NCBI GenBank assembly: GCA_020632995.1
Contig: JACKEN010000003.1
Span: 372,677 to 436,676 of the forward strand
DNA from: Deltaproteobacteria bacterium
GTDB lineage: Bacteria; Myxococcota; Kuafuiibacteriia; Kuafuiibacteriales; Kuafuiibacteriaceae
Direction: 5' to 3'
DNA length: 64,000 nt
Each line of letters starts with the position of its first letter. The stretch's first letter is position 1. Positions 32,590 to 49,630 of this stretch are shown in pieces. The notes under the pieces were generated by a model, which saw nothing but the letters and a program-made list of their open reading frames with translations, made no database searches and was not told the DNA's origin. Both the position numbers and the translations under genes were made by a program.

Positions 32590-32605
32590 TCTGAAGGAGT
32601 ACGGC

Positions 32606-33730: not shown

Positions 33731-33734
33731 GGCA

Positions 33735-33865
33735 TGGAGCTGATGATGAGTCGTCAACTGCGGGTCGCCGCAATCATCGCCGTCGTGGTCCTCGCGGTGT
33801 CCTGGATCATGCTCCGACAGCACAACGCACAGGTCGCCGCTCCGGCGGCGGAGGCGCAGCAATGA
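33735..33865 (+). CDS. Small (43 aa) single-TM protein, translationally coupled to downstream rhodanese
   Basis: ATG with hydrophobic core VAAIIAVVVLAVSWIML; stop overlaps next ATG (ATGA). Confidence 0.3.
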
Positions 33866-34326: not shown

Positions 34327-34336
34327 GGCGAGTGCG

Positions 34337-37225
34337 ATGACCATCTCGAGACGCGACGTACTGAAGAACATGGCCGCGGTGAGCGCGGGGGCCGCCGCGG
34401 TCTCCGCCCTGGACGGGCGCGCCCTGGCCAAGGGGCTCCCCAAGCCGGAGCGGCGGGACGATCCCCGCCATCACCCGCCGGCCAAGGAGACGTCGGTCGA
34501 GGCCATGTATCGGGCCGAGTTCGCCGAGACCTTCGGCGACGCGGGCGAGAAGGGCTTCGCGTACCACTGCGTGAACTGCCAGGGGAACTGCGCCTGGCAG
34601 GTCTGGAGCAAGGACGGCAAGGTCACCCGCGAGAACCAGAGCGCGTCCTATCCGCAGATCGCGGACGACATCCCGGACGCGAACCCGCGCGGCTGCAACA
34701 AGGGCGTGCAGCACAGCCAGATCATGTACTCGCAGGACCGCCTGCTCTACCCGATGAAGCGGGTGGGCGAGCGCGGCGAGGGCAAGTGGGCCCGGATCAG
34801 CTGGGACGAGGCCATCTCCACGGTGGCCGAGAAGCTCTACGACACGATGCTCCGGGTGGGCCCGGAGGGGAACTACATCCACGTCGGCGCGGGGATCCTC
34901 ACCGAGGCCAGGGCCGCGTCGGTGAAGCGCCTCGGGGCGCTGTTGGGCGCGGTGCGTCCGTACATCGCCTCCTATGTCGGTGACATGTTCCCTGGCGTCT
35001 CGGTGGTGTACGGCGAGGGCAACATCGGTTGCACCTTCGACTTCATCTACAAGTCGAACGTCGCGGTGTTCTGGGGCTGCAACCCCAACACCTCGCGCAT
35101 CCCGGACGCCCACTACCTGTGGGAGGGCAAGTACAACGGCTGCAAGGTCGTGGTGATCACCCCAGAGTTCAACTCCACCGCGATCCACGCCGACCTGTGG
35201 GTGCCGGTGAAGCCGGGCGGCGACGGCCACCTGGCCATGGCCATCATGAACCGGATCGTGAAGCGGCGGCTCCACAACCCGAAGTTCCTGGCCACCTACA
35301 CCGACCTGCCGCTCCTGGTCCGCGAGGACAACGGCAAGCTCCTCACCCTCCACGACGTGGACGCCGAGGCCCTCGACTCGAAGCTAGTGGAGCTGTTCGG
35401 TGAGGACGAGGCGAAGCACCACGAGGTCTTCCTCGCCTGGGATCAGCGCACCAAGAAGGCGGTGCCGCTGCCCGGCTGCGAGGGGAGCGCGGTGCCGACG
35501 CTGCGCCTGAAGGACAACGCCTGGAACATCTCCCCCGCCCTGAAGGGCACCTACAAGGTGAAGCTCTCGGACGGGAGCATGGTCACCGTGAAGCCGGTGT
35601 ACGAGCGCTTCGAGCAGGAGCTGGCCGCGTTCGCGCCCGAGAAGGTGCAGGCGATCACCGGCGTCCACCCGAAGGTGGTGGACGAGCTGGCGGTCGACCT
35701 CGCCAAGTCGAAGACCGCGGTCATCACCCTCGGCTTCGCGGTGGGCAAGCACTTCAACGGCATGCTCTCGCAGCGCGCGATCTCGACCCTGGCCGCGCTG
35801 TCCGGGAAGCTCGGCCCCAACGGCGGCATCAACTCCGAGAACGAGTGGAACATCACCGGCCTCGGCGGCCTGAGCAGCTTCGATGGGCGCTTCGTGCACC
35901 GCTTCGCGTCCGGCTTCACCTCCGAGTTCATGCTCGGCGATGGCCTGAAGACCTACGACAAGGGCTTCGCGGACGAGGACGTGAGGCGCGCCACCGGGAT
36001 GTCCAAGTCGGACTACAAGTCCCGGGTGGAGCAGATGCTCACCAAGGGGAAGAACGACGACGGCTACAAGGACGGCGGCAAGCCGTACTGGACCACGGTC
36101 GAGACCTTCTTGATGTTCGCGGACTCCCGGTTCCGTCGGAACAAGGGTGAGTACAAGGAGGCCTTCCTCGAGAAGGCCAAGTTCATCGCCTACGGCGACA
36201 TCCGCATGAGCGACTTCGCGCAGTACGCGGACGTGCTCCTGCCCTGCAAGTCGCACTACGAGGTCTGGGACATCCGGACCAACCCCGGCTACCACCGCTT
36301 CGCGAACATCGCGTACCCGCCGCCCCACCTCGAGAACGTGGGTGAGGCGAAGAGCGAGTGGGAGATCTCGACCCTCATCGTGGAGAAGATGGAGGCCCTG
36401 GCCAAGGCGCGCTACGCCAAGACCAAGGACGAGAAGGACATCAAGATCCCGGACGAGACCCACACCCAGGAGGGCTTCCGGCCCATGGGTGAGCTCGTCA
36501 AGGAGTTCACCCAGGACGGGAAGGTGCGCACCGACCGCGAGGCGGTGGAGTACGCGCTCGAGCACGTCGACCAGTTCAAGCCGAACACCATCCAGACGGT
36601 GTACGACCGCGGCGGGTTCCTGCAGCTCAACGACAAGTCCGGCAAGTCGAGTCCGCTCTATGCGGACCGGCCCTACAACACGTTCGAGAGCCAGCTGTAC
36701 TTGTTCCAGCGCTTCGACACCGTCAGCGGGCGGCTCACGTTCTACGTGGACCACCCACTGTGGGTCGAGATGGGGGCGGCGATCGTCACCGCGCGGGAGC
36801 CCATCCGGCCGAAGAAGTACCCGCTGGCCCTAATGACCCCGCACGCGCGGTGGTCGATCCACTCGACGTACAAGACCTCGCCGACCCTGCTGCGTCTGCA
36901 GCGCGGCAAGCCGTACGTCATGATCAACCCCGAGGTGGCGGCGTCCCGCGGCATCGCGGACGGCGACGACGTCCGGATGTTCAACGACCTGGGCGACACC
37001 GTGTTGATGGCGAAGCTGGTGCCCGGCGTGCCGAAGAACGCGGTGGTGATGGAGCACGGCTGGGAGCCCTTCATGTTCCGCGGCCGCAAGGGGCAGAACG
37101 TCCTCGTGGGCGACATGCTCAACTTGCTTGAGCTCAGCGACGGGTGGGGACACCTGAAGTTCGGCACCAACTGGGACGGGAACCAGCACGCCTACGACGC
37201 CACCGTCGAGCTGGCGAAGGTCTGA
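34337..37225 (+). CDS. Tat-exported molybdopterin (Mo-bisPGD) oxidoreductase catalytic alpha subunit, type II (NarG/EbdA/SerA/DdhA-like)
   Basis: Twin-arginine signal MTISRRDVLKNMAAVSAGAAA; FS0 motif AYHCVNCQGNCAW...PRGCNKG aligns with NarG HGVNCTGSCSW...PRGCPRG (His-x3-Cys-x3-Cys); RLLYPMKR matches NarG RLKYPM; about 962 aa. Confidence 0.85.
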   Translation: MTISRRDVLKNMAAVSAGAAAVSALDGRALAKGLPKPERRDDPRHHPPAKETSVEAMYRAEFAETFGDAGEKGFAYHCVNCQGNCAWQVWSKDGKVTRENQSASYPQIADDIPDANPRGCNKGVQHSQIMYSQDRLLYPMKRVGERGEGKWARISWDEAISTVAEKLYDTMLRVGPEGNYIHVGAGILTEARAASVKRLGALLGAVRPYIASYVGDMFPGVSVVYGEGNIGCTFDFIYKSNVAVFWGCNPNTSRIPDAHYLWEGKYNGCKVVVITPEFNSTAIHADLWVPVKPGGDGHLAMAIMNRIVKRRLHNPKFLATYTDLPLLVREDNGKLLTLHDVDAEALDSKLVELFGEDEAKHHEVFLAWDQRTKKAVPLPGCEGSAVPTLRLKDNAWNISPALKGTYKVKLSDGSMVTVKPVYERFEQELAAFAPEKVQAITGVHPKVVDELAVDLAKSKTAVITLGFAVGKHFNGMLSQRAISTLAALSGKLGPNGGINSENEWNITGLGGLSSFDGRFVHRFASGFTSEFMLGDGLKTYDKGFADEDVRRATGMSKSDYKSRVEQMLTKGKNDDGYKDGGKPYWTTVETFLMFADSRFRRNKGEYKEAFLEKAKFIAYGDIRMSDFAQYADVLLPCKSHYEVWDIRTNPGYHRFANIAYPPPHLENVGEAKSEWEISTLIVEKMEALAKARYAKTKDEKDIKIPDETHTQEGFRPMGELVKEFTQDGKVRTDREAVEYALEHVDQFKPNTIQTVYDRGGFLQLNDKSGKSSPLYADRPYNTFESQLYLFQRFDTVSGRLTFYVDHPLWVEMGAAIVTAREPIRPKKYPLALMTPHARWSIHSTYKTSPTLLRLQRGKPYVMINPEVAASRGIADGDDVRMFNDLGDTVLMAKLVPGVPKNAVVMEHGWEPFMFRGRKGQNVLVGDMLNLLELSDGWGHLKFGTNWDGNQHAYDATVELAKV

Positions 37226-37238
37226 GGAGAAGCACTCG

Positions 37239-38288
37239 ATGTCGAAGCGTCAGCTCGCCATGGTCATGGACCTCAACAAGTGCATCGGCTGCCAGACGTG
37301 CACGGTGTCCTGCAAGACGCAGTGGACCAACCGCAACGGCCGGGAGTACATGTACTGGAACAACGTCGAGACGAAGCCCGGCGATGGCTACCCCAAGAAG
37401 TGGGAAGACATGGGCGGCGGGTTCGACGAGCGAGGTCAGCTGAGGGACGGCCACGTGCCCTCACGCTCCTCGGAGTACGGCACGCCCTGGGACTACAACC
37501 TGAACGAGCTCGACTCCGGGAAGCTCCTGGAGGCGCAGCAGAAGCTCCAGGTGGGGCCGAACTGGGACGAGGATCAGGGCAAGGGCGACTTCCCGAACTC
37601 GTACTACTTCTACCTCCCCCGCATCTGTAACCACTGCAGCAACCCGGGTTGCCTGGCCGCCTGCCCCCGCGGGGCGATCTTCAAGCGGGACCAGGACGGC
37701 ATCGTGCTCGTGGATCACGATCGCTGCGAGGGCCTGCGGTATTGCATTGCAGGTTGTCCTTACAAGAAGATCTACTTCAACCCGAAGCTCTTCAAGAGCG
37801 AGAAGTGCATCTTCTGCTTCCCTCGCATCGAGAAAGGGCTCCCGCCCGCGTGCGCCCACCAGTGCGTGGGGCGCATCCGCTTCGTGGGCTACCTCGACGA
37901 CGAGGAGAGCCAGGTCTACAAGCTGGTGCACAAGTACAAGGTCGCGCTGCCGCTCCACGCCGAGTACGGCACCGTGCCCAACGTCTTCTACGTGCCGCCG
38001 CTCCCCGGGCCCCCGAAGTACGACGCGTTCGGCAAGCCCGTGGCGGGCAGCGAGCGCATCCCGCTCGAGTACCTCGAGAGCCTGTTCGGGCCCGACACCA
38101 AGGCCTCCCTCGCGGTGCTCGAGAAGGAGATGGCGAAGCGCAAGGCCGGCAAGACGTCGGAGCTGATGGACATCCTCATCGCCTACAAGCACTCCGACAT
38201 GTTCCGCATCGACGCCCCGAAGCCCACCGCCAGCGTGGGCACCGATCTCATCCAGATCGGCAAGAAGGCAGAGAGGAGCCCGGCGTGA
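37239..38288 (+). CDS. NarH-like iron-sulfur beta subunit of type II molybdoenzyme
   Basis: Block-by-block similarity to NarH: LNKCIGCQTCTVSCK, YWNNVETKPGDGYP, GPNWDEDQG, YLPRICNHCSNPGCLAACP, GIVLVDHDRCEGLRYCIAGCPYKKIYFN, SEKCIFCFPRIE, CVGRIRFVG, VALPLHAEYGTVPNVFYVPPLP. Confidence 0.9.
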   Translation: MSKRQLAMVMDLNKCIGCQTCTVSCKTQWTNRNGREYMYWNNVETKPGDGYPKKWEDMGGGFDERGQLRDGHVPSRSSEYGTPWDYNLNELDSGKLLEAQQKLQVGPNWDEDQGKGDFPNSYYFYLPRICNHCSNPGCLAACPRGAIFKRDQDGIVLVDHDRCEGLRYCIAGCPYKKIYFNPKLFKSEKCIFCFPRIEKGLPPACAHQCVGRIRFVGYLDDEESQVYKLVHKYKVALPLHAEYGTVPNVFYVPPLPGPPKYDAFGKPVAGSERIPLEYLESLFGPDTKASLAVLEKEMAKRKAGKTSELMDILIAYKHSDMFRIDAPKPTASVGTDLIQIGKKAERSPA

Positions 38289-39487
38289 AGGCGCGGCTGA
38301 TGATGGGCGCCGTCCTCGGCGCCGCGATGCTCATGGGCGGGAGCGCCCGGGCCGACGACGCCTACCTTAAGGCGGAGGCGGTGACGGTGACCCGCACCCA
38401 GAAGGTGCCGAAGGATCCGCGGGACGCGGCGTGGGCCAAGGCCCCGGCGGCCCGGGTGATGCTGGGCGCTCAGCGGACGGTGCGCCTCAACGATCGGGAC
38501 GCCAACCCGCACCGGGACGACGCCCAGAAGTTCGCCGAGGTGCAGGCCTACAGCGACGGCAAGACGCTGGCGATGCGGGTCTCGTGGGTCGATCCCACCG
38601 AGGACCGGGCGCTCTACGACGAGACCTCGGTGTTCGGCGACGCGGTGGCGATGGAGATGCCGGCCGCCTTCGGGGCGGAGCACCGCCTGCCCTACGTCGG
38701 CATGGGCGACCCCGACGAGAACGTGGTGGTGTCGATGATCCGCGCCACCACCAGCTACCAGGGCGCGCCGATGTCGCGGCCGCGGACCACGGTGGCGGCG
38801 GGCTTCGGCTCCCTCACCCGGGCCCCGCTGCCGTGGATGGACATGGTCATGTACTACGACCGCAAGCTGCCTGGCTGGCGGGCCACCTTCGTGCGGCCGG
38901 TGACCACCCCCGAGCACGACATCGCGCGCCCCCTGGTGCCGTTCGCGCTCGCGGTTTGGGACGGGGCCGAGAAGCAGCGCGGCGGCAACAAGTCGCTGTC
39001 CCGCTGGAAGGTGCTGCACGACGCCCAGGCCAAGGCGGAGCCCGCGTACCTCGAGAAGCTGGCCTACGGGTACGGCGCGCAGGCCACCGGTGATGCGGCC
39101 AAGGGCAAGGCGCTCGCCACCGCGGTGTGCATCGCCTGCCACCGCTTCGCGGAGTACCAGGTGGCGCCGCCCGAGCTCGCGCCGGAGCTGACCAACGTCG
39201 GCGTCATCACCAACCCGACGTATCTGCGCGACTCCATCAAGGAGCCGAGCCAGATCATCGTGCCGGTGCTGAACCTCAACCGCCACTACTCCAAGTCGAA
39301 GGAGCGGGACCGGTACGGCGCCTACCAGAACGACGACACCTACCAGTGGTTCTCCATCGACGCCGCGGGCAAGCGGGTGTCCCGCATGCCGAGCTTCGCG
39401 GGCTTCAGCCCCGAGCAGATCGCGGATCTGGTGGCGTTCCTGCAGACCCTCGGTACCCAGCCTGCCCCGAAGAAGGAAGGTCAGTGA
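38285..39487 (+). CDS. Gamma subunit: EbdC/SerC-type heme-b domain fused to a C-terminal cytochrome c domain
   Basis: GTG start overlapping beta stop (GTGA); signal peptide; N-terminal about 250 aa of type-II heme-b-subunit size; C-terminal CIACH (CxxCH) with downstream Met-rich cytochrome c-like region. Confidence 0.7.
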   Translation: MKARLMMGAVLGAAMLMGGSARADDAYLKAEAVTVTRTQKVPKDPRDAAWAKAPAARVMLGAQRTVRLNDRDANPHRDDAQKFAEVQAYSDGKTLAMRVSWVDPTEDRALYDETSVFGDAVAMEMPAAFGAEHRLPYVGMGDPDENVVVSMIRATTSYQGAPMSRPRTTVAAGFGSLTRAPLPWMDMVMYYDRKLPGWRATFVRPVTTPEHDIARPLVPFALAVWDGAEKQRGGNKSLSRWKVLHDAQAKAEPAYLEKLAYGYGAQATGDAAKGKALATAVCIACHRFAEYQVAPPELAPELTNVGVITNPTYLRDSIKEPSQIIVPVLNLNRHYSKSKERDRYGAYQNDDTYQWFSIDAAGKRVSRMPSFAGFSPEQIADLVAFLQTLGTQPAPKKEGQ

Positions 39488-39488
39488 C

Positions 39489-39899
39489 ATGAAGCGCAGC
39501 GTGTTGATGCTCGGTGTGTTGAGCGCCGCTCTCTGGGCGGCCCCCGCCTCGGCCCAGGAGAAGGGCGACGACGTGGAGGTGACCTCCGGCTCGGTGACCG
39601 GGCTCTCCTGCGCCCTCGAGGCCCAGAAGACCGGCCACCTGGAGCTGCTGGCCGCGTGCCCGCTCCAGGAGGCGGTGAAGGAGATCGTGATCTTCGACGT
39701 GGCGGAGCGCGCGATCTATCGGCTCCAGGGCGTCACGGTGGCCATGTACGAGCTCGAGATGGCCTACGGCGGCGGCTCCATCGACATGGAGGGCGTCGTC
39801 ACCAAGGTCGACAAGAAGACCGGCGTGGCCACGGTGAAGGTGGCAGAGTACTCCATCACCAAGAAGCCGAAGGCGGGCGGGTTCAAGGGCTGCCTGTGA
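39489..39899 (+). CDS. Small periplasmic protein of unknown function in molybdoenzyme operon
   Basis: Signal peptide MKRSVLMLGVLSAALWAAPASA; 136 aa; stop overlaps next GTG start. Confidence 0.5.
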   Translation: MKRSVLMLGVLSAALWAAPASAQEKGDDVEVTSGSVTGLSCALEAQKTGHLELLAACPLQEAVKEIVIFDVAERAIYRLQGVTVAMYELEMAYGGGSIDMEGVVTKVDKKTGVATVKVAEYSITKKPKAGGFKGCL

Positions 39900-40789
39900 A
39901 GGACCTGATCCAGATCGGCGCCGGGGTGCAGGCGGGCAAGCCCGACCTCCGCTTCGGCACCAGCGCCGCCCCCAACGATCGCGCCGGCTTCGCTCGCGCG
40001 GTGGTGGCGGTGACGTCTGGAAAGGGCGGGGTGGGCAAGTCCACCGTGGCGGTCAACCTGGCGGTGGGCTGCGCGCAACGCGGCTTGCGGGTGGGCCTGT
40101 TGGACGCGGACGTCTACGGGCCCAGCGTGCCCCGCATGCTGTCGCTCCACGGCGAGCGCCTCGAGTGGAGCGACGACGACAAGATGATCCCGGCCGAGAA
40201 CTTCGGGGTCAAGCTCGTGAGCACCGCCCTCACCACCCCCGAGCTCGACACGCCGCTCGCGTGGCGCTCCTCGGTGGCCACCAGCGCGCTGGTGCAGCTC
40301 ATCGAGGACGTGGACTGGGGTGAGCTCGACATCCTCTTCGTCGACATGCCGCCGGGCACCGGCGACGTGCAGATCACCGTGGTCCAGGAGGTGAAGCTCA
40401 CCTACGCGGTGGTGGTCACGACCCCGCAGACGGTGGCCACCGACGACGTGGCGCGGGCGATCCGCATGCTGGCCGACGTGGGTGTGCCCGCCGGCCTGGT
40501 CGAGAACATGAGCTTCTTTCGGGCCCCGGACACCGGGGCCATCTACCATCCCTTTGGCGAGGGCGGCGGTCGAGGCCTGGCGGAGCGCTATCAGCTGCCG
40601 CTGCTGGGCACCCTGGCCCTGGCACCTTCGGTCATGACGCGGGCAGACGAAGGTCTGCCTGCGGTGGCCGGTGGCGCGCCCGAGGACCAGGCGCCGTGGC
40701 AGGCGCTGGTCGATCACCTCCTCAAGCAACCTTCTCTGCTCGAGCGGCTCCCACCGGGGACCGCAACAACCCATCAGGAGAACATATGA
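39896..40789 (+). CDS. apbC: Mrp/NBP35/ApbC-family Fe-S cluster carrier ATPase
   Basis: Walker A SGKGGVGKST; conserved CxxC-type region and Mrp signature blocks; GTG start overlapping upstream stop; stop overlaps cytochrome c ATG. Confidence 0.8.
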   Translation: MKDLIQIGAGVQAGKPDLRFGTSAAPNDRAGFARAVVAVTSGKGGVGKSTVAVNLAVGCAQRGLRVGLLDADVYGPSVPRMLSLHGERLEWSDDDKMIPAENFGVKLVSTALTTPELDTPLAWRSSVATSALVQLIEDVDWGELDILFVDMPPGTGDVQITVVQEVKLTYAVVVTTPQTVATDDVARAIRMLADVGVPAGLVENMSFFRAPDTGAIYHPFGEGGGRGLAERYQLPLLGTLALAPSVMTRADEGLPAVAGGAPEDQAPWQALVDHLLKQPSLLERLPPGTATTHQENI

Positions 40790-41166
40790 AGAAGACCATC
40801 CTTATCGTGCTCGGAGCCCTCTTTGTCGCCAACGCCGCCGTGGCCGCCCCCAAGGCCAAGGCGCCCAAACCCACCAAGGAGCTGCTCGAGAAGGGCAAGG
40901 CCACCTTCACCGTGAACTGCGTGGCCTGCCACGGCGAGAAGGGCGACGGGACGGGCCCCGCGGCGGTGGCGCTCGACCCCAAGCCGCGAAACTTCTCGAC
41001 CGACCAGTTCAAGAACGGGGACAAGCCCGACCAGGTGTTCAAGACGATCTCCGAGGGGCTCGCGGGGACGCCGATGGTGGCGTATGGTCACCTCTCCGAG
41101 GAGGAGCGGTGGGGGCTGGTGTACTACGTCCTCGAGTTCCACAAGAAGGCCGGCAAGAAGAAGTAG
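40786..41166 (+). CDS. Monoheme class I cytochrome c
   Basis: Signal peptide; CVACH heme-binding motif; distal Met (GTPMVAYG). Confidence 0.75.
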   Translation: MKKTILIVLGALFVANAAVAAPKAKAPKPTKELLEKGKATFTVNCVACHGEKGDGTGPAAVALDPKPRNFSTDQFKNGDKPDQVFKTISEGLAGTPMVAYGHLSEEERWGLVYYVLEFHKKAGKKK

Positions 41167-41211
41167 GTCGCGGTCGGGCTCGGAGTCCCGGATGACGGGA
41201 GGGGGCGTGGA

Positions 41212-41847
41212 ATGAGGCTTGGATTTCTCGTGGACCTGGACCTCTGCATGGGCTGCAAGGCCTGTGAGGTCGCGTGCAAGGCGGAGAACAACGTGCCCGT
41301 CGGGGCGTGGCGCTTGCGCGTGAAGTATGTGGACACCGGGACCTATCCCGACGCCAAGCGCGCATTCACACCCATGCGCTGCAACCAGTGTGACAACGCC
41401 CCCTGCGAGCGGGCCTGCCCGGTGGGGGCGTTGCACTACCTCGACAACGGCATCGTCGACGTCGACAAGGACCGTTGCATCGGCTGCGCCGCGTGCATGA
41501 TGGCTTGCCCATACGGCGCCCTCTACATGGACCCCGAGACCAACACCGCCGACAAGTGCACCTTCTGCGCGCACCGGGTCGAGGGCGGCCTCGAGCCGGC
41601 CTGTGTGGTCGCCTGCCCGGTGGAGGCGAACATCTTCGGTGACCTGGACGATCCGCGCAGCAGGATCAGCCAGTACATCATGGCCCACAACGACTCGCGG
41701 GTGAGGAAGCCCGAGAAGGGCACCGTGCCGAAGCACTACTACACCGGTGGCGGCGCGGTGCACCTCGACCCCCTGGCCTCACGCCGGGAGCCGGGCTTCA
41801 ACCTCTTCAACCGCATCGGCACGCTGGACAAGATCGGGGGGCACTAG
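41212..41847 (+). CDS. 4x[4Fe-4S] ferredoxin subunit (TtrB/PsrB/NrfC-like)
   Basis: Four Cys clusters (CMGCKACEVAC, CNQCDNAPCERACP, CIGCAACMMACP, CTFCAHRVEGGLEPACVVACP). Confidence 0.8.
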   Translation: MRLGFLVDLDLCMGCKACEVACKAENNVPVGAWRLRVKYVDTGTYPDAKRAFTPMRCNQCDNAPCERACPVGALHYLDNGIVDVDKDRCIGCAACMMACPYGALYMDPETNTADKCTFCAHRVEGGLEPACVVACPVEANIFGDLDDPRSRISQYIMAHNDSRVRKPEKGTVPKHYYTGGGAVHLDPLASRREPGFNLFNRIGTLDKIGGH

Positions 41848-42711
41848 ATGAACTCTGCTGTCGTCACCCTGGACGTCCTGCACTCCGGAGTCATCTGGGG
41901 CTGGTACGTCACCATGAACTTCTGGGCCAAGAGCATCGCCACCGGCGTGATCCTCCTGGCGCCCTGGCTCCTGAAGCGCTCCGAGAACCCGCAGCTGCGC
42001 TTCCTCACCGCGGGGGTGGGCTTCGTCTTCTTGAACATCACACTGCTGTTCACCGTGTTGGACCTGCACCAGCCCTTCAGGTTCTGGCACATGTTCGTGC
42101 ACCCGCACTTCACGAGCGTCATCAACATCGGGGCGTGGATCCTCACCGCCCTGAACGGCCTGTTGGTGCTCCACCTGTTCATGGCGTGGCGCAAGCGCGA
42201 CGCGCTCTACGACAAGCTCCTGCCGGTGACCTGGTTCGTGGCCTTCCTCGCCACGATCTACACCGCGGGCCTGCTCGGGCAGGCGAACGCGCGTGAGATC
42301 TGGCAGGCGCCGGCCGAGGTGGCCCAGATGATCCTGGCCGCCACCCTCTCGGGCAGCGCGGTGTTCCTGCTCATCGGGGGCGGCGACGCAGAGATCAAGC
42401 GGCACCTCGGCACCGTCCTCGGGGTCTCCGCCCTCGTGGCGCTGAGCATCTTCCTCGCGGAGATCTTCCTCGCCCCCCAGAAGTCCGAGGAGGCCGAGTA
42501 CCTGATCCACATCCTGGTCTCGGGTCAGCTCAGCGGGCTGTTCCTGGGCGGTCTGGTGGTGGGCTTCGTGGCGCCGGCGGTGCTCGCCTATGTCGGGGTT
42601 CGCAAGAACCAGGCAGGGCTCCTTGCGCTGGCCAGCGTGATGGGCCTGGTCGGCCTGTGGCTGGTGAAGCACGCGTGGCTCATCGCGCCCCAGCTCATCC
42701 CCCTCAGCTGA
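41848..42711 (+). CDS. NrfD/PsrC-family integral membrane quinol-interacting anchor (TtrC-like)
   Basis: Eight predicted TM helices; NrfD-like pattern; ATG one base after the B-subunit stop. Confidence 0.8.
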   Translation: MNSAVVTLDVLHSGVIWGWYVTMNFWAKSIATGVILLAPWLLKRSENPQLRFLTAGVGFVFLNITLLFTVLDLHQPFRFWHMFVHPHFTSVINIGAWILTALNGLLVLHLFMAWRKRDALYDKLLPVTWFVAFLATIYTAGLLGQANAREIWQAPAEVAQMILAATLSGSAVFLLIGGGDAEIKRHLGTVLGVSALVALSIFLAEIFLAPQKSEEAEYLIHILVSGQLSGLFLGGLVVGFVAPAVLAYVGVRKNQAGLLALASVMGLVGLWLVKHAWLIAPQLIPLS

Positions 42712-42730
42712 GAATCGGTCGGAGCATAAC

Positions 42731-45700
42731 ATGGCGACCCATCGACGAACCTTCCTCAAGGCAGCCACCATCTCCACCGGCGCCGCAGCGGCGCTGGTGG
42801 GCTCGATCCGGTCCTTCATCCCCAAGGCCCGGGCCGGTGAGTCCGTGGCGACCAAGTACGACAAGCTCCCCGTGGTGAACGGGAACCTGGAGCGCTACCC
42901 GCCGTTCGAGAAGTGGAACGGTTGGCGCGAGATGGACGGTGACGACTGGAAGCGTGGCGGCATCCTGCGCCACGACGTGAAGGTCAACGACTACATGTTG
43001 GTCCCGACCGTCTGCAACAACTGCGAGGCGGTGTGCGGCCTGACCGCGTGGGTCGACAAGGAGACCCTCACCGTCCGGAAGTACATGGGCAACCCGCTCC
43101 ACACCGGGAGCCAGGGTCGCAACTGCGCCAAGGGCTACGCGGTGCTCACGCAGATGTACGATCCCGACCGGATCCCGTTCCCGCTCAAGCGGGCCCCCGG
43201 GACCAAGCGCGGCGACGGCAAGTGGGTGCGCACCACCTGGGACGAGGCCATGGCCACCATCGGTGGCAAGATGCGCGAGGCCCTCTCCAAGGGCGATGAG
43301 TTCACCAAGAAGTCCATCATGCACCACGTGGGCCGGCCCAACGAGTCCGGGTTCACGCCGCGGGTGTGGGCGAGCCTGGGGCAGGACTTCCAGAACAGCC
43401 ACACCAACATCTGCTCCGCGAGCGGGCGCTTCGGGAGCCTGTTGTGGGCGAACGACGACCGCAGCTCCTCGGACTGGTCCAACGCGCGGCTGATCTTCCT
43501 GATCTCCTCCCACGCGGCGGACGCGGGCCACTACTTCCAGCAGTCGGCGCGGCAGATCGCCGAGGCGCGCAAGAAGGGCGCCAAGCTGGTGGTGCTCGAC
43601 CCGCGCCTGTCCAACTCCGCCGGCATGGCGGATCTGTGGATCCCGTGCTGGCCCGGGAGCGAGGCGGCAATCCAGCTTGCCATCGCTGGGCGGCTGATCA
43701 AGGAGCGCCGCTACAACCGTGAGTTCGTCCGCCGGTGGTGGAACTGGCAGGACTTCATGGCGTCCAAGGACACCCACCAGCTCCTCCTCGAGCAGGGCTT
43801 CATCACCAAGCTGCCCGCGGGTGAGGGCTTCGAGGCCTTCGAGGCCTTCATGGAGGACATGTACGGCGCCTACACCCTCGAGTGGGCGGCGGAGCAGGCG
43901 CGGGTCCCGCTCTCCAAGCTCGAGACGCTGTACGAGTACTTCCTGTACGCGGGCGACCGCGTGGCGAGCTTCCACTGGCGGGCGACCGCGGCGGGGAACC
44001 GGGGCGGCTGGATGTCGTCGTCCCGCACCGGCATCTTCCTGATCAGCCTCCTCGGTAACTACAGCGGCGTCGGCGCGCTGGGCTACCACCACGGGCGCGA
44101 GATCGCGGTGGCGGGAAAGGGCGGCAAGAGCACGGTGGGCGAGAAGCCGCCGAAGGTGGACGAGTGGAACGACCTGTCGTGGCCGCCGGAGTGGCCGCTC
44201 GCCTCTTATGAGCTGAGCTTCCTGTTGCCGCACCTGTTGACCGACACCGACTGGCAGCAGAAGTGGCGCGACAAGGGGCTCACCGTGCCCTCCAAGATCC
44301 CGGTGTACTTCCCGCGGATGTACAACCCGGTGTGGATCAACCCGGACGGCTTCCGGTGGATCGAGGTGCTGCGGGACGAGTCCAAGATCGAGCTCGCGAT
44401 CAACCCGTCGCCGATCTGGTCCGAGACCAACTGGTTCATGGACTACATCCTCCCCACCGGCCTGTCGGGGGAGCGGCACGACCAGCACTCCGAGCCCACC
44501 AACACCGAGGCCTGGGTGGCGTTCCGTCAACCTGTCTTGCGCGCGGCGCTCGAGAAGATGGGCTGGGAGCCCAAGGACCCGGCGCGGGCCACGTTGGAGG
44601 CCCACATGAAGGCGGGCCTGGGTGAGATCTGGGAGGAGAACGAGTTCTTCATCAACCTCCTGTTCCACCACGTGGATCCGGACGGCGCCCTCGGGATCCG
44701 GCAGTACTGGGAGAGCCGGGCCCGCCCCGGCAACCCGGTGACGATCGCCGAGTACTATGACGCCGCCTTCGGCACTCTGCCCGGCCTGACCAAGGCCGCG
44801 AAGGAGGCCGCGGCCAAGAAGGCGAAGGACGCCAAGACGCCGGAGGAGAAGAAGCTCGCGGCGTTCGCGGCCCAGCACCCCTGCTACGACATGATGCGGG
44901 ACCGGGGCGCCTGGACCGAGCACGTCGACGTCTTCAACCAGTACGAGGAGGAGCTCGAGGTCGACGAGGCCCGCGGCGTGGTGAAGACGAAGGCGATGGA
45001 CGTCTTCGGCGGCGCCGTCGAGTACCCGATCAAGAGCGTCAAGACGGACCCGAAGACCCAGCAGCTCTACGTCGAGACGCCCGAGGGGCGCCACAACGTC
45101 GGCGTGGTGGGCGAGCGCGGGGGCTGGGAGGTCGGCTTCCCCACCCCGAGCCGCAAGATGGACTTCTTCGCCGGCTGGATGAAGGACTGGGGTTGGCCGG
45201 AGTACACCATCCCGATCTACCCGCGCACCAAGGCCCAGATGGACAAGATGATCCACCTGGTCTCCCACGTGCACCATCAGTACATGACGGAGGAGAACGC
45301 GTTCGCCCTGAACCCGATCTTCCGCCTCTCGTACAACATCCACACCCGCGGCGTGAACTCGAAGTGGCTGCAGGAGATCAGCCAGAACCACGCGCCCCTG
45401 TGGATCAGCATGCAAGACGCCCGGCGGATGGGCCTCGGTCGCGGTGACCCGGTCAAGGTGCGGGTGGTCGACACGCTCTCCGGCAAGGAGTCGGGCTACT
45501 TCGTGGCCATGGCGATGCCCACCGAGGGCATGGCGCCCGGGGTGCTGTCCTGCAGCCACCACGCCGGCCGGTGGCGCGTGGTGGACAAGGTCGACATCTC
45601 GGGCTTCGAGCAGCCGCTCCACATCATGCGGGCCGGCAGCCCGCAGGCGGAGCTGAAGGAGGAGGGCTCGACGCAACGCAGCCTGCGCTACACGAAGGGC

Positions 45701-46081
45701 ATCGAGGCCTTCCTCCCCACGCCCACCAAGGAGTTCGGCGACAAGGGCTGGCCCTTCGCCGCGGTCAACCAGGACCTCGACAACATCAGCTGGGACGGCC
45801 TGAGCGGGGTCTGGCAGAACGCCACGCACCACCCGCACCCGGATCCGATCTCCGGCATGCACTGCTGGCACCAGAAGGTGCTGCTCGAGAAGGCGGGGCC
45901 GGGCGACCGGATCGGCGACCTCAAGGTCGACATCTCGGCCACCTACGCCACCTACCAGGCCTGGCGTGACGAGCTCACCCGGCCGGCGCCGGGGCCGGGC
46001 GGCCTGCGCCGACCCGAGCACCTGAAGCGCCCGTGGGTCGCGATCACCCGCGACGCCTACAAGATGAAGACCAAGGCGTGA
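42731..46081 (+). CDS. Tat-exported molybdopterin oxidoreductase catalytic subunit, TtrA/SrdA-like (gene order B-C-A)
   Basis: Twin-arginine signal MATHRRTFLKAATISTGAAAA; 4Fe-4S motif CNNCEAVCGL...GRNCAKGY (Cx2Cx3C...C); about 1116 aa; B-C-A order matches ttrBCA/srdBCA-type operons. Confidence 0.8.
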   Translation: MATHRRTFLKAATISTGAAAALVGSIRSFIPKARAGESVATKYDKLPVVNGNLERYPPFEKWNGWREMDGDDWKRGGILRHDVKVNDYMLVPTVCNNCEAVCGLTAWVDKETLTVRKYMGNPLHTGSQGRNCAKGYAVLTQMYDPDRIPFPLKRAPGTKRGDGKWVRTTWDEAMATIGGKMREALSKGDEFTKKSIMHHVGRPNESGFTPRVWASLGQDFQNSHTNICSASGRFGSLLWANDDRSSSDWSNARLIFLISSHAADAGHYFQQSARQIAEARKKGAKLVVLDPRLSNSAGMADLWIPCWPGSEAAIQLAIAGRLIKERRYNREFVRRWWNWQDFMASKDTHQLLLEQGFITKLPAGEGFEAFEAFMEDMYGAYTLEWAAEQARVPLSKLETLYEYFLYAGDRVASFHWRATAAGNRGGWMSSSRTGIFLISLLGNYSGVGALGYHHGREIAVAGKGGKSTVGEKPPKVDEWNDLSWPPEWPLASYELSFLLPHLLTDTDWQQKWRDKGLTVPSKIPVYFPRMYNPVWINPDGFRWIEVLRDESKIELAINPSPIWSETNWFMDYILPTGLSGERHDQHSEPTNTEAWVAFRQPVLRAALEKMGWEPKDPARATLEAHMKAGLGEIWEENEFFINLLFHHVDPDGALGIRQYWESRARPGNPVTIAEYYDAAFGTLPGLTKAAKEAAAKKAKDAKTPEEKKLAAFAAQHPCYDMMRDRGAWTEHVDVFNQYEEELEVDEARGVVKTKAMDVFGGAVEYPIKSVKTDPKTQQLYVETPEGRHNVGVVGERGGWEVGFPTPSRKMDFFAGWMKDWGWPEYTIPIYPRTKAQMDKMIHLVSHVHHQYMTEENAFALNPIFRLSYNIHTRGVNSKWLQEISQNHAPLWISMQDARRMGLGRGDPVKVRVVDTLSGKESGYFVAMAMPTEGMAPGVLSCSHHAGRWRVVDKVDISGFEQPLHIMRAGSPQAELKEEGSTQRSLRYTKGIEAFLPTPTKEFGDKGWPFAAVNQDLDNISWDGLSGVWQNATHHPHPDPISGMHCWHQKVLLEKAGPGDRIGDLKVDISATYATYQAWRDELTRPAPGPGGLRRPEHLKRPWVAITRDAYKMKTKA

Positions 46082-46686
46082 TGGAGGCCCAGGGGCGCGC
46101 CAACCTCTACGGCTTCTTCTCCCGGCTGTTCATCCGGGAGCTCGACGACGAGGCGGTGGCGCTGTTGGCGGGGCCGCTCGGGCAAGATCTCTTGCCCGAG
46201 GCCACCGCGGCGGGGGACGTGGCGCTGGCCGCCGACCCCGCCCGTCGGCACGCGGTGCTGGACCCCGACTACACCCACATCACGGTGGTGAACGTGGTGC
46301 CCTACGCCTCGTTCTACCTGCGCGACGACGCCATGGTGGAGGGCGGCACGGCGAACCCGGCGGCGGAGTTCCTGAAGGAGTACGGCTTCGAGGTGGATCT
46401 GGTGGCGGCGCGCTCGCTCGCGCCCGACCACATCGGGATCCTGCTCGAGAGCATGGCGGTGCTCGCCAACGCCGAGGCGGAGGCCGAGGCGCGTCCGGAC
46501 CCTGCCTACGCGGCCCGGATCCGGCAGGTGCAGCGCACGTTTCTGCAGGACCACCTGCTCTCCTGGGCGCCCGTCTACCTGTACGCGGTGGAGCGCTGCG
46601 CGCACAGCACCCTCTACCGCGAGGCGGCCAGCGTGCTGATGGACTTCCTCGGGAGCGACGCCCAGGACCTGGAGGCAGAGGCGTGA
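46081..46686 (+). CDS. TorD/DmsD/NarJ-family molybdoenzyme maturation chaperone
   Basis: Size and helical pattern of REMP chaperones (LYGFFSRLFIRELD...); start overlaps TtrA-like stop. Confidence 0.65.
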   Translation: MEAQGRANLYGFFSRLFIRELDDEAVALLAGPLGQDLLPEATAAGDVALAADPARRHAVLDPDYTHITVVNVVPYASFYLRDDAMVEGGTANPAAEFLKEYGFEVDLVAARSLAPDHIGILLESMAVLANAEAEAEARPDPAYAARIRQVQRTFLQDHLLSWAPVYLYAVERCAHSTLYREAASVLMDFLGSDAQDLEAEA

Positions 46687-47762
46687 ACACCGCCCTCGGG
46701 CTGACCTACGAGGCGTGCGTGCGCACGCTCTCCCGGAGCGCCACCTGCACCGTTTGCCGCGACGCCTGCCCGGTGCGGGCGGTGGGCCTGGAGGGCATCC
46801 GGGGCTCGGTGACGGTGGCCCTCGACCGCTGCACCGGCTGCGGCCTGTGCAGCGCCGCCTGCCCCACCGACGCCTTCACCGCGCCCTTCGCGCTGGGCGA
46901 GGTGCTGGCCGGCTCGGACGGGCAGCTCGCCTGCGGGCAAGGTGGCTTGCCGTGCATCGGCGCCCTGTCGGCCGAGGACCTCATCGCCCTCGCCACCCGG
47001 GTGAAGGTGGTGGCGCTCCACGACGGCCCCTGCGCCTCTCGGGAGCCCGGCCACCACGCGGCCGCGGCGCGGGCGGCCGAGGCCCAGGCCTTCCTCGACG
47101 CGGTGGGGATCAAGGCCACCGTCTCCTTCGCGCCGGCCGAGGCGCTCCCGCCCGCGGCCGATCGTCGCCCGGAGGCGGCGGAGCCGGCCAAGGCCCCCGA
47201 GGTGTCGGCGGAGCGCCGCCGGATGCTGCGGATGCTGGTGCCCACCCTCAAGCAGGGCCCGAAGGAGGTCTTGCAGCAGCCCGATCGCCTGGACCGAGCC
47301 CGGATGCAGCAGCTCCCCGAGCGGCGTCGGCGCCTCCTCGCCGCGCTGCCGCCCGGGGTGGAGGCCCGGGAGGCCACTGTGCCCACCGCGACGCTGGGCT
47401 TCGTGTCGAGCAAGCAGGTCGACGAGCACGCCTGCACCGCCTGCACGGTGTGCTTCAGCGTGTGCCCCACCGGGGCGCTGCAGGCCCCCCGCTCGCTGAA
47501 GGAGCTGCGCTTCGACACCAGCCGCTGCACCCGGTGCGGGCTCTGCCACGACGTCTGCGAGCCGGACGCCCTGCGCCTGGCCCCCGAGACCTCGCTGGAG
47601 GACTTCCTGGAGTTCACCCCGCGGGTTCTGGCCCGGCTGCCGGTGACCCGCTGCGGGGAGTGCGGCCTGCCCTACAACCGGGCCGAGGGCTCGGCGGGGC
47701 TGTGTCCACGGTGTTGGGCGATGGAGGAGGAGGCCATGGACCTGAGCGGAGGCAACCGATGA
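46683..47762 (+). CDS. Poly-ferredoxin-like protein with multiple 4Fe-4S CxxCxxC(xxx)C motifs
   Basis: At least four Cys clusters (CTVCRDACP, CTGCGLCSAACP, CTACTVCFSVCP, CTRCGLCHDVCEP) plus C-terminal CGECG...CPRC. Confidence 0.7.
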   Translation: MNTALGLTYEACVRTLSRSATCTVCRDACPVRAVGLEGIRGSVTVALDRCTGCGLCSAACPTDAFTAPFALGEVLAGSDGQLACGQGGLPCIGALSAEDLIALATRVKVVALHDGPCASREPGHHAAAARAAEAQAFLDAVGIKATVSFAPAEALPPAADRRPEAAEPAKAPEVSAERRRMLRMLVPTLKQGPKEVLQQPDRLDRARMQQLPERRRRLLAALPPGVEAREATVPTATLGFVSSKQVDEHACTACTVCFSVCPTGALQAPRSLKELRFDTSRCTRCGLCHDVCEPDALRLAPETSLEDFLEFTPRVLARLPVTRCGECGLPYNRAEGSAGLCPRCWAMEEEAMDLSGGNR

Positions 47763-48124
47763 TGCCCGAAGGCCCCCTGGACGAGATGGCGGCGGATCTC
47801 GTGATCCCGGCCAAGAGCGGGATCTACATCGCCAAGAGCGAGGTGATCGTGCTCGCCCACCTGGTGGAAGGTAGCTTGCGGGTGAACGAGCGTCGCCGCA
47901 TGCTCGCCGACGTCCTGAAGTCGCCGGACTCCCTCGAGGGGCTCATGGCCCTGGTGAGCCGCCTGATGGACTTCACCCAGGCCCACCTGGACCGCTACGC
48001 AGAGCTGGCGGAGGCGTTCCCGGCCATGGCCCCCTCGCTCGCGCCGTGGCGCGAGAAGGCCGCGCGCACCCTGGGGCGGCTGGCCGATGTCCGGGAGCAG
48101 ATGGAAGACGAGACCGAGCTCTGA
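47759..48124 (+). CDS. Hypothetical protein (about 121 aa) terminating the oxidoreductase cluster
   Basis: ATG ATG overlapping upstream stop; coding-like composition; no motif. Confidence 0.45.
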   Translation: MMPEGPLDEMAADLVIPAKSGIYIAKSEVIVLAHLVEGSLRVNERRRMLADVLKSPDSLEGLMALVSRLMDFTQAHLDRYAELAEAFPAMAPSLAPWREKAARTLGRLADVREQMEDETEL

Positions 48125-48133
48125 TCTGCAGCT

Positions 48134-49390
48134 CTACTCGACGTGGAGCCCGAGCTGCTCCATGAGGCCCCTGAGGGTGGCGCCGGTGGCCGGCAGGCTG
48201 CCCTGCAGACGACCCGCTCGCGCGGCGATCCACGGATCCACCTTCGGGAGCGGCTTCACCGCGCCGGCCAGGCCGAGCAGGCGGCTCCACTCCTCGGTGC
48301 GGCCCTCGCCGTAGGCGGTGAGCTTCTCCATGCCCGCGTCGCCCTTGAGGACGTTGGCGATGGCGTGGGCCAGATCGTGACCCTCCCGGAGCCCCACGTT
48401 CATGCTCTGGATGCCGGCGGGGCCGGTCATGTGGCCCGCGTCGCCGGCCAGCCAGGTGCGCCCGCGCCCGAAGCTGGTGGCGAGCCGCTTCTCGAAGCGC
48501 ACCACCAGGCGCCAGTCGATGTCATCGATCGCGCCCTTGAACCACGGCGCCCGCTCCTTCAGGAACCCGTACAGGTGCTCCGGGTCCAGCACCGGGTACT
48601 CGTCGCCGCCGACCTGCACCAGGAGGCGGTCCTTCTGGCGCGACAGCTCGTCGCCCGAGAACTCCTCGAGCTCGAAGCTCCACCGCATGCGCCGGCCGGG
48701 GAGCGGCCACAGCACGTTGGTGCGCTCCGCCTCCAGCACCAGCCGCATCTCCGGGCCGAGGTCGGCGTCGGTCTCGAACTCGAAGACCGCGAAGTGCTGG
48801 GCCTTGCCGACCTCCGGGAACGGGATGTCGAGGCTGCGCCGCACGAAGGACTGGTAGCCGTCCGCGCCGAGCACGAAGGGCACCTTCCAGTCGTAGCTCT
48901 TGGCGATCGTCCAGTCGAAGCGAGCCACGCCGTAGCCCATGGACTCCTTCTCCAGCTTGTCGACCGCGACGTGCACCCTGTCGCCCGCCTCCTCCATGTG
49001 GGAGATGCGGTGGCTCCACAGGATCGGGACGCCCAGGGCCTCCAGCGCCTCACCCAGCAGGCCCTCGAGCCGGTCCTGGCTCATGACGGCCACGAAGGCC
49101 CGCCGGTCTCCCGCTGTGAGCCGCACCTCGGCCTTGCGGTCCGAGCCCTCGTACAGCCCCACCGTGTCCACCCGACGGGCCTTCTCGAGCACGCGGCCGA
49201 CCAACCCAACCTCTTCCAACAGATCCAAGGAGGCGCCGTGCAGCGCCAGCGCGTAGGCCCGGGAGGCGGGACGCCACGCCTTGTCCACCACCGTCACCGG
49301 GATCTTGTGCCTGGCCAGCACCAGGGCGGAGTACAGCCCCACCGGGCCCGCCCCCACCACCAGGACGTCAGGCGCCTTCTTGCCGAACAT
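48134..49390 (-). CDS. FAD-dependent monooxygenase/hydroxylase
   Basis: GxGxxG dinucleotide motif VLVVGAGPVGLYSAL at trimmed start; conserved GD (DAGH) FAD-binding motif GRTWLAGDAGHMTGP. Confidence 0.75.
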   Translation of the reverse strand: MFGKKAPDVLVVGAGPVGLYSALVLARHKIPVTVVDKAWRPASRAYALALHGASLDLLEEVGLVGRVLEKARRVDTVGLYEGSDRKAEVRLTAGDRRAFVAVMSQDRLEGLLGEALEALGVPILWSHRISHMEEAGDRVHVAVDKLEKESMGYGVARFDWTIAKSYDWKVPFVLGADGYQSFVRRSLDIPFPEVGKAQHFAVFEFETDADLGPEMRLVLEAERTNVLWPLPGRRMRWSFELEEFSGDELSRQKDRLLVQVGGDEYPVLDPEHLYGFLKERAPWFKGAIDDIDWRLVVRFEKRLATSFGRGRTWLAGDAGHMTGPAGIQSMNVGLREGHDLAHAIANVLKGDAGMEKLTAYGEGRTEEWSRLLGLAGAVKPLPKVDPWIAARAGRLQGSLPATGATLRGLMEQLGLHVE

Positions 49391-49630
49391 GTTGCGCACC
49401 TCCGTGGTGGCGGTCCCCACACCGCCACCGTCACTGAGTTTGACCGCCACTCATCGCATGCATAACCGCGACCAAGCGGTGTGGCTTGGCGCACGGGCGA
49501 CGGCGGGGCGTCGCGCGTGGCGCCTCGGTACGATCCGCCCGGGGCGGCGTCACCACGGCCGAGGTCGGCAGGCCGACTTGCGCGACGCTGCGGCCGGATC
49601 ATGCGTTCGCTTCGACCACAACGCCCGCGC

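Follow-up and report, generated by a model that had tools for sequence, protein, structure and literature searches.

What is the second of two molybdoenzymes encoded back to back, and does it work together with the first? This question is raised by a 64,000-nucleotide stretch of DNA, here called the window, from a Deltaproteobacteria bacterium of the Myxococcota family Kuafuiibacteriaceae (assembly GCA_020632995.1, contig JACKEN010000003.1, positions 372,677 to 436,676). At 41212-46081 it encodes a ferredoxin subunit (B), a membrane anchor (C), and a catalytic subunit (A) in the order B-C-A, downstream of a type II enzyme of the dimethyl sulfoxide (DMSO) reductase family and a cytochrome c. 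The original prediction took this order as the mark of a tetrathionate reductase (Ttr) or Srd-type selenate reductase and proposed a two-step redox pathway with a shared cytochrome c. Here, we find that A very probably belongs to a distinct, uncharacterized clade of complex iron-sulfur molybdoenzymes (CISM) embedded in a conserved sulfur cluster, and we tentatively propose a role in periplasmic sulfur oxidation. Even the minimal reading corrects a tempting misannotation, since a B-C-A order does not equal a tetrathionate reductase.

The B-C-A module and its subunits

Six close-packed genes on the plus strand at 41212-48124 make up the module; Tat denotes twin-arginine translocation, and Mo-bisPGD denotes the molybdenum bis(pyranopterin guanine dinucleotide) cofactor.

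41212-41847, +, B: four-cluster ferredoxin subunit of 211 aa with four Cys motifs and no signal peptide (Pfam Fer4_11)
41848-42711, +, C: NrfD/PsrC-type quinone-interacting membrane anchor of 287 aa with about 8 transmembrane segments (Pfam NrfD, 69 bits)
42731-46081, +, A: catalytic Mo-bisPGD subunit of 1116 aa, exported by the Tat route (N-terminal RRTFLK motif; domains Molybdop_Fe4S4, Molybdopterin, and Molydop_binding)
46081-46686, +: TorD/NarJ-family chaperone (Pfam Nitrate_red_del, 60 bits; synteny)
46683-47762, +: cytoplasmic NapF-like polyferredoxin of 359 aa (three Fer4 domains; napF, 50 bits; synteny)
47759-48124, +: helical protein of 121 aa, of no family (synteny)

The genes first described at 41212-47762, including the TorD chaperone, the polyferredoxin, and the overlapping starts, are real; the 121-aa gene ends at 48124, beyond that interval. 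B and C abut with 0 nt between them, C and A are 19 nt apart (no gap inside the module is larger), A overlaps the chaperone gene by 1 nt, and the chaperone-polyferredoxin and polyferredoxin-121-aa overlaps are 4 nt each.

A has a C-x2-C-x3-C...C motif of the FS0 (iron-sulfur cluster) type at 95-132, and its Cys228, part of an invariant HTNICS, lines up with the Cys ligand in PhsA and TtrA. The locus thus has the Mo-bisPGD subunit, FS0 Cys motif, ligand residue, four-cluster subunit, and NrfD-family membrane subunit of a CISM with an NrfD-type anchor. The start of B at 41212 is the most upstream one, and the protein opens at its first cluster motif. From these features, B-C-A would be a periplasm-facing, menaquinone-coupled, three-subunit molybdoenzyme of the PsrABC-type build, with B probably exported together with A and C serving as a heme-less NrfD anchor. 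Its likely assembly factors are the TorD-like chaperone, the NapF-like polyferredoxin, the small protein, and an Mrp/NBP35 protein encoded nearby. In the polyferredoxin, a variant motif accompanies three canonical CxxCxxCxxxC(P) motifs, and the C-terminal region has a CxxC...CxxC; its weak similarity to NapF suggests a role in maturation, and it is probably a maturation factor. The 121-aa protein has no Pfam or NCBIfam match, and its weakly conserved homologs (25 to 77% identical) lie at the same place, the end of the module.

Affiliation of the catalytic subunit

Does A belong to a known enzyme family? The B-C-A order is real and kept throughout the enzyme family of A; since it is a trait of A's own family as well, it is no evidence for Ttr. 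No curated family claims A. Its best curated match is the PhsA model NF012032 (124 bits; cutoff, 694), and the ArrA model NF041714 (76 bits; cutoff, 1600) and the NCBIfam TtrA equivalog NF011567 (62 bits; cutoff, 1750) score lower, with all three matches confined to the N-terminal third. Among solved structures, PsrA (PDB 2vpw; 115 bits) is the closest in sequence. C reaches 30 bits with the TtrC model NF011568 (cutoff, 314), and its similarity to TtrC overall is 30 to 34 bits. The best curated model for B is TtrB (194 bits; cutoff, 416), followed by ArrB (176 bits), and B is 47% identical to TtrB, an identity that weighs little because B subunits are alike across families.

Reference sequences were the PGAP-named ttrBCA of Escherichia coli plasmid CP044309.1 and phsABC of another E. 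coli plasmid. In BLASTP, A matches TtrA with 92 bits and 26% identity over 304 aa, within the N-terminal 300 aa or so only, which is about level with its match to the Asp-type alpha subunit encoded in the window (83 bits); PhsA gives 101 bits at about 25% identity. Less derived relatives of A reach 195 bits with PhsA and about 100 bits with TtrA. A neighbor-joining tree with modest bootstraps and thin sampling places PhsA next to the A family and TtrA outside PhsA plus the A family; it serves here solely to argue against an affinity to Ttr. The full-sequence comparison covered TtrA, PhsA, and the Asp-type alpha subunit, with ArrA judged by its model and PsrA by its PDB score.

Duval et al. 2008 (PMC2500031) name a Tat leader on B, along with the B-C-A order, as typical of the Ttr clade. 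TtrB has a 40-residue RRQFL leader, and B has none. No TtrS/TtrR regulators adjoin the module; the cluster's regulator is an ArsR-rhodanese protein, with no two-component system. The TtrA and TtrC scores, the missing Tat leader, and the tree do not support membership in Ttr/Srd, judged here by Ttr references.

Other assignments were tried and rejected. Orthology with PhsA/PsrA conflicts with the subthreshold score, its confinement to the N-terminal third, and the order B-C-A instead of A-B-C, and orthology with ArrA conflicts with the ArrA model score. The SoeABC type is set apart by topology and gene order (RRTFLK Tat motif on A, B-C-A) only; in the search for a SoeA reference among plasmids, the Sulfitobacter/Pseudosulfitobacter matches were formate dehydrogenases and the Pseudohalocynthiibacter match was an unrelated soluble enzyme. 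The MOLY cluster of sulfur disproportionators (PMC12998232) is without a membrane anchor. An AlphaFold2 model of A from a 15-sequence alignment (mean predicted local distance difference test [pLDDT], 52.5) was too poor for a fold search.

Distribution of the A family

More than 100 full-length homologs of A (52 to 84% identity), none of them named, were found in Myxococcota, Campylobacterota (Sulfurimonas, Sulfuricurvum, Sulfurovum, Thiovulum, and Nitrosophilus), and Aquificota (Persephonella, Hydrogenothermus, and Sulfurihydrogenibium, with the cluster present in Sulfurihydrogenibium yellowstonense), and at least 529 GTDB species representatives encode an A relative. Fifteen diverse members share 66% mean column identity. 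The B-C-A-TorD-polyferredoxin module is kept in all three phyla. In Nitrosophilus alvini and Sulfurimonas sp. ST-25, it stands alone, with or without the small protein, indicating that the chaperone and the polyferredoxin belong to the B-C-A enzyme. The N. alvini module (L001:200-8132) lies right behind phoU and a PhoB/PhoR-like pair, beside the pst phosphate transporter, a neighborhood that may be coincidence or a hint at oxyanion-related regulation.

Thermomicrobium roseum, Rhodococcus jostii RHA1, and Natrinema (L004:6425-10886, L005:6479-10895, and L006:6119-10985) encode more distant full-length relatives, at 36 to 40% identity. Here, B is fused to C, A is without a Tat signal, and an Mrp/NBP35 gene follows. 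In R. jostii RHA1 (40% identity), DsrE and TusA genes precede the module, among ArsR and metallo-beta-lactamase (MBL)-fold hydrolase genes, and a CsoR-type regulator is encoded near the Thermomicrobium relative. The enzymes of Rhodococcus, Thermomicrobium, and haloarchaea are thus predicted to face the cytoplasm, and their presence in aerobes without a Tat signal agrees with what a donor:quinone enzyme would lead one to expect. The plasmid pAZKH of Azoarcus sp. KH32C (L089:4245-12558) has a distant module consisting of B-C-A, TorD, three hypothetical proteins, a polyferredoxin, and a small protein; its A is 25% identical over the full length, and the module sits behind genes for a PhnD-like binding protein, a histidine kinase, and a sigma-54 regulator.

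Our literature searches found no named description of the A clade or the cluster, only passing misannotations. Surveys of Yellowstone National Park Aquificales list a "ttrA" for Sulfurihydrogenibium (PMC3665934), and Wells et al. 2023 describe an unnamed lineage "sister to TtrA/SrdA," with no link to the A family established. A Thiovulum cave strain expresses a ttrB-nrfD-"narB" operon and a separate six-gene operon of a rhodanese, "narG," "narH," cytochrome c, and unannotated genes, and no sox, dsr, apr, or sulfite dehydrogenase was reported for it (PMC9938260). In Thiovulum sp. ES, a 54%-identical A is placed after B and C. Thiovulum carries both modules, unlinked, and contig L137 holds a six-gene operon of the Thiovulum rhodanese-"narG" type.

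Conserved juxtaposition of the two modules

Upstream of B, the cluster continues with 11 further genes in the same orientation.

30935-31651, +: ArsR/SmtB-type regulator fused to a rhodanese domain (NCBIfam HTH_metalloreg, 71 bits; Pfam HTH_5 and Rhodanese)
31648-32589, +: secreted double-domain rhodanese with a catalytic-loop Cys (CHVGLGR) (two Pfam Rhodanese domains; signal peptide)
32606-33730, +: YeeE/YedE (SoxT/TsuA-like) sulfur-compound transporter (Pfam Sulf_transp, 87 bits; about 8 transmembrane segments)
33734-33865, +: 43-aa open reading frame with a single transmembrane segment, overlapping the next start codon (read from the sequence)
33862-34326, +: Rhd154, membrane-anchored rhodanese-fold protein of 154 aa ending GGGGCL-COOH, without catalytic Cys (alignment of homologs)
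34337-37225, +: type II DMSO-reductase-family alpha subunit with Tat signal, H-x3-C-x3-C FS0 motif, and Asp Mo ligand (TIGR03479, 781 bits; cutoff, 985)
37239-38288, +: type II beta subunit, Fe-S (TIGR03478, 517 bits; above the cutoff of 481)
38285-39487, +: type II gamma subunit (heme b, EB_dh) fused to a c-type cytochrome domain (TIGR03477, 90 bits; cutoff, 170; Pfam EB_dh and Cytochrom_C)
39489-39899, +: secreted 136-aa OB-like protein ending ...PKPKxGxFKGCL-COOH, candidate sulfur carrier (homolog alignment, motif scan, predicted structure)
39896-40789, +: Mrp/NBP35 (ApbC-like) Fe-S cluster carrier ATPase, GTG start overlapping the preceding stop (Pfam ParA/NUBPL, 275 bits)
40786-41166, +: secreted monoheme cytochrome c, belonging with the type II module (Pfam Cytochrom_C, 48 bits)

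Is the neighborhood of the two enzymes more than local? All 17 window proteins were compared by tblastn with 86 loci. The string double rhodanese, YeeE, Rhd154, alpha, beta, gamma/cytochrome c, 136-aa protein, B, C, A, TorD, and polyferredoxin is collinear in all 15 Hydrogenothermaceae loci that have an upstream flank. It is likewise collinear, from rhodanese to polyferredoxin, in seven Myxococcota loci, and one more has it inverted nearby; the double rhodanese itself is collinear in both phyla. The Mrp and monoheme cytochrome c genes are absent from the Aquificota version, and Mrp/NBP35 recurs as a neighbor of both modules. Order, orientation, and gaps of tens of bases are kept between Aquificota and Myxococcota at 55 to 75% protein identity, and this conservation across two phyla argues for a functional link and for a sulfur substrate. 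The sulfur context of the window itself consists of the rhodaneses, YeeE, and the ArsR-rhodanese protein; ArsR-type repressors paired with YeeE-like importers regulate sulfur oxidation elsewhere (PMC11582611). The ArsR-rhodanese protein, whose gene also heads the cluster in L090, is the probable sulfur-responsive repressor of the cluster. Of the two-enzyme pathway originally proposed, a linked sulfur system is likely, but its Ttr/Srd identity is not supported and the cytochrome is not shared.

What occupies the place of B-C-A elsewhere is also informative. The slot directly after the 136-aa gene is filled by B-C-A, by a SorA-family sulfite dehydrogenase, or by Mrp, cytochrome c, SCO1, and COX2/1/3 genes. 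A SorA-family gene directly follows the 136-aa gene in L123 (1-777) and L134 (2759-3763), is found nearby in L101 (1331-2341), and stands with SorB 3 kb upstream in L090 (2614-4223); these genes score 214 to 425 bits with the SorA model.

The 17 genes at 30935-48124 span 17.2 kb without a gap larger than 45 nt, a seeming 131-nt gap being filled by the 43-aa membrane open reading frame, at whose position a gene of 40 to 44 aa is called in L002, L090, and L137. The spacer between the cytochrome c gene and B is 45 nt long and carries GGGAGGGGG, a strong ribosome site. A promoter/terminator scan found no terminator-like site at this junction; at the G+C content of the window (about 70%), the scan is informative only as to a terminator there. 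The two molybdoenzymes are probably cotranscribed, as first supposed, but the transcription unit is likely about 17 kb long rather than 14 kb, because no larger gap interrupts 30935-48124.

The flanking genes lie on the opposite strand. Upstream, a gene for a bacterial alpha-2-macroglobulin of 1588 aa (25948-30714, -) diverges from the ArsR gene, and an IS66-family transposase is encoded at 20370-22493. Downstream, a gene for an FAD-dependent monooxygenase (FAD_binding_3; 48134-49450, -) converges on the cluster end with a 9-nt spacer; this neighbor is kept only in the closest relative (L002) and is elsewhere not in the module.

The type II enzyme, its cytochrome c, and two proteins with cysteine arms

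The type II alpha subunit scores 401 bits with PcrA in PDB and is 33% identical to ClrA. Only beta exceeds its model cutoff, alpha and gamma staying below theirs, and the Asp ligand and H-x3-C-x3-C motif are conserved. The type II module (34337-39487) has no NarJ/delta chaperone of its own. The only TorD-like gene of the cluster travels with B-C-A, and in clusters without B-C-A (L090 and L137) no delta/TorD-like chaperone is encoded nearby.

The secreted cytochrome c had been thought to link both enzymes, and this does not survive comparison, because in L090, L104, and L111 it accompanies Mrp and the type II module, and it is absent from Aquificota clusters. In Anaeromyxobacteraceae-type loci, the type II module is followed by Mrp and cytochrome c and then by SCO1 and COX2/1/3 genes of a caa3-type oxidase (L090:16743-20957, L104:113-1824, and L111:5845-9930). 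This order, together with the absence from Aquificota, suggests that the cytochrome is the output of the type II enzyme toward an oxidase and not a conserved bridge.

The type II module is always flanked by two proteins with a Cys arm. The 136-aa protein ends in ...PKPKxGxFKGCL-COOH in 23/23 locus homologs and Rhd154, with a rhodanese fold lacking the catalytic-loop Cys, in ...GGGGCL-COOH in 18/18. In both, the Cys is penultimate and the arm is conserved across Myxococcota and Aquificota. DsrC/TusE carries a comparable arm, ...PKPTGCV-COOH, with a penultimate Cys on a Pro/Gly-rich C terminus. The 136-aa family is small, with only 35 clusters retrieved by a profile search of 1.84 billion representative proteins; apart from two unusual cases, its full-length members end in [FS]K[GA]CL, and lipoproteins occur among them. 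Its predicted structure (pLDDT, 80.5) is an oligonucleotide/oligosaccharide-binding (OB)-like barrel with the last dozen residues disordered; Foldseek against PDB gave no significant match, only a weak OB-fold likeness (best E, ≥0.09) and no SoxY. When the whole collection was scanned for the C-terminal motif, 44 metagenome contigs matched, and wherever these have a flank, the 136-aa gene directly follows type II gamma. Judged by this neighborhood, the 136-aa protein is an obligate partner of the type II module, and both arm proteins are candidate sulfur carriers.

Proposed function and alternative explanations

How might these parts work together? The reading we favor, put forward tentatively and rated somewhat short of probable, is that the cluster serves sulfur oxidation in the periplasm: the type II enzyme would act on carrier-bound sulfane sulfur, and B-C-A would pass electrons from sulfite, or a related sulfur species, to menaquinone. 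In a first step, the secreted rhodanese would take sulfane sulfur from thiosulfate or polysulfide and transfer it to the two carriers, at the penultimate Cys of their flexible ...GCL-COOH arms. The type II (Asp-ligated) molybdoenzyme would then oxidize the carrier-bound sulfur, with electrons passing through heme b, the fused cytochrome c domain, and the soluble cytochrome c to a terminal oxidase. Finally, B-C-A would oxidize the sulfite so formed (or a sulfur oxyanion close to it) and deliver electrons to menaquinone. Substrates, direction of electron flow, and carrier role are our interpretation of the observed gene content, families, topology signals, arrangement, and Cys arms. Three lines make a donor:quinone role, most simply from sulfite to sulfate, the most economical one for B-C-A: the slot replacement, the DsrE/TusA/MBL genes around the cytoplasm-facing relatives, which are found in aerobes, and the presumed reliance of all hosts of the cluster on menaquinone for respiration. 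The Thiovulum data fit sulfur oxidation, since both operons are expressed and sox, dsr, apr, and sulfite dehydrogenase genes are reportedly missing.

A broader claim, which we regard as doubtful, is that the two molybdoenzymes and the two ...GCL-COOH proteins form an unrecognized carrier-based periplasmic pathway that converts sulfane sulfur to sulfate without Sox, Dsr, Sor, or Soe. It would feed both cytochrome c/oxidase and menaquinone and would explain sulfur oxidation in organisms such as Thiovulum, for which every known pathway is reported missing. If true, a clade spread over hundreds of species of Campylobacterota, Aquificota, and Myxococcota and related to enzymes of Actinomycetota, Thermomicrobia, and haloarchaea, now annotated as "molybdopterin-dependent oxidoreductase" or mislabeled ttr, nar, or psr, would gain a function. 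Periplasmic sulfur oxidation would have a second carrier-protein strategy beside SoxYZ, with a DsrC-like penultimate cysteine, and inventories scoring sox, dsr, sor, soe, psr, and ttr would miss the pathway in sulfur oxidizers of vents, hot springs, caves, and sediments. Thiovulum would be one example.

Several observations weigh against sulfur oxidation by a linked pair of enzymes. B-C-A has no adjoining type II module at over 30 loci of Campylobacterota and 6 of Myxococcota, and loci of Anaeromyxobacteraceae and others carry the type II module without B-C-A; because both also occur alone, the link between them is facultative. The replacement by SorA is seen at four loci. The nearest characterized relatives of the type II alpha subunit are oxyanion reductases (PcrA and ClrA), enzymes of the Psr/Phs/Ttr type are classically reductases, and Persephonella, Nitrosophilus, and Sulfurimonas can respire or disproportionate sulfur. 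A SoxY-type carrier was considered for the arm proteins and rejected: the 136-aa model is OB-like and not Ig-like, with no SoxY among its best PDB matches, and the arms are FKGCL and GGGGCL, not GGCGG.

The alternative that survives best, and that we still consider unlikely, takes B-C-A as a menaquinol-fed, Psr/Phs-like reductase of polysulfide, elemental sulfur, or thiosulfate, serving respiration or disproportionation, with the rhodaneses delivering sulfane sulfur like Sud of Wolinella. It draws on the PsrABC-type architecture, the best curated, structural, and tree neighbors of A (PhsA, PsrA, and PhsA, respectively), the periplasmic rhodaneses of the cluster, and hosts that in part reduce or disproportionate sulfur, Sulfurimonas sp. 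ST-25 being an example. Against this, the scores are far under the cutoffs and the genes are not in the order A-B-C, the cytoplasm-facing relatives are encoded beside DsrE/TusA in strict aerobes, a sulfite dehydrogenase or an oxidase fills the equivalent slot in relatives, and the cluster is found in S. yellowstonense, an O2-respiring sulfur oxidizer.

Could the two molybdoenzymes instead be functionally independent and adjacent by an accident of operon packing? Each module does stand alone in many genomes. We consider this rather improbable in view of the order, orientation, and short gaps shared by Aquificota and Myxococcota at the protein identities given above, and of the sulfur contexts in which both modules recur.

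The proposal made originally, that B-C-A interconverts tetrathionate and thiosulfate at the quinone pool as a Ttr-type tetrathionate reductase or thiosulfate dehydrogenase, is not favored, and we rate it as quite improbable. The B-C-A order, the sulfur-related context, TtrB as best curated model for B, and the published "ttrA" and ttrB labels for Sulfurihydrogenibium and Thiovulum speak for it. The low TtrA and TtrC scores, a similarity to TtrA that covers 300 N-terminal residues and is no better than that to an Asp-type enzyme, the lack of a Tat leader on B and of a TtrSR regulator, and the position of TtrA in the tree speak against it. In addition, the hosts presumably all use menaquinone, whose potential is too low to accept electrons from the oxidation of thiosulfate to tetrathionate.

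A two-step reduction of selenium or arsenic oxyanions, by a SerA-like type II selenate reductase via cytochrome c and an Srd/Srr/Arr-like B-C-A, with rhodaneses, Cys arms, and YeeE handling selenium, is the most improbable: the kinship of type II alpha to oxyanion reductases, an order as in srdBCA, ArrB as second-best model for B, a weak match of the rhodanese to ExtH of a selenite/tellurite cluster (53 bits), and the pst/phoU/phoBR neighborhood in Nitrosophilus are set against the ArrA score, a phyletic pattern that tracks sulfur oxidizers, and SorA, sulfide:quinone oxidoreductase-like, DsrE, TusA, and cytochrome oxidase genes next to the relatives.

Comparison with known systems

Which known systems does the locus resemble? 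With TtrBCA (Salmonella, and the E. coli CP044309.1 copy), the B-C-A module shares the gene order, a periplasmic Cys-ligated Mo-bisPGD subunit, a four-cluster B, and a heme-less membrane subunit C, and it adds the TorD, polyferredoxin, and small-protein genes. PsrABC/PhsABC (PDB 2vpw and the E. coli plasmid PhsA) have the same architecture, NrfD/PsrC-type anchor, and Cys ligand position, but their genes are ordered A-B-C, and A of the window exceeds theirs in length by about 350 residues and has conserved insertions and an extended C terminus. SoeABC (Allochromatium and Aquifex) shares the function proposed here, sulfite to sulfate with a quinone acceptor, as well as the Cys-ligated CISM build and the association with sulfur-transfer proteins. 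It faces the cytoplasm and is encoded A-B-C, whereas the window enzyme is Tat-exported and encoded B-C-A. In orientation, the Tat-less distant relatives of A resemble Soe.

The upstream module has the alpha/beta/gamma composition, Tat-exported alpha, His/Cys FS0, Asp ligand, and heme b gamma of the type II family (PcrAB, ClrABC, SerABC, DdhABC, and EbdABC). It differs in its distance from ClrA (about 33% identity), an alpha below the cutoff, the gamma-cytochrome c fusion, the lack of its own delta, and the flanking Cys-arm proteins. Sox (SoxYZ with its GGCGG-COOH arm; SoxCD with a cytochrome) likewise places a Cys on a flexible arm in the periplasm and wires a Mo enzyme to a c-type cytochrome. 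In the window cluster, the carriers are of OB-like and rhodanese fold, the Mo enzymes are of the DMSO reductase and not the sulfite oxidase family, and no SoxXA or SoxB homologs are present. The Cys-tipped, Pro/Gly-rich arms recall DsrC/TusE and may, functionally, resemble SoxY.

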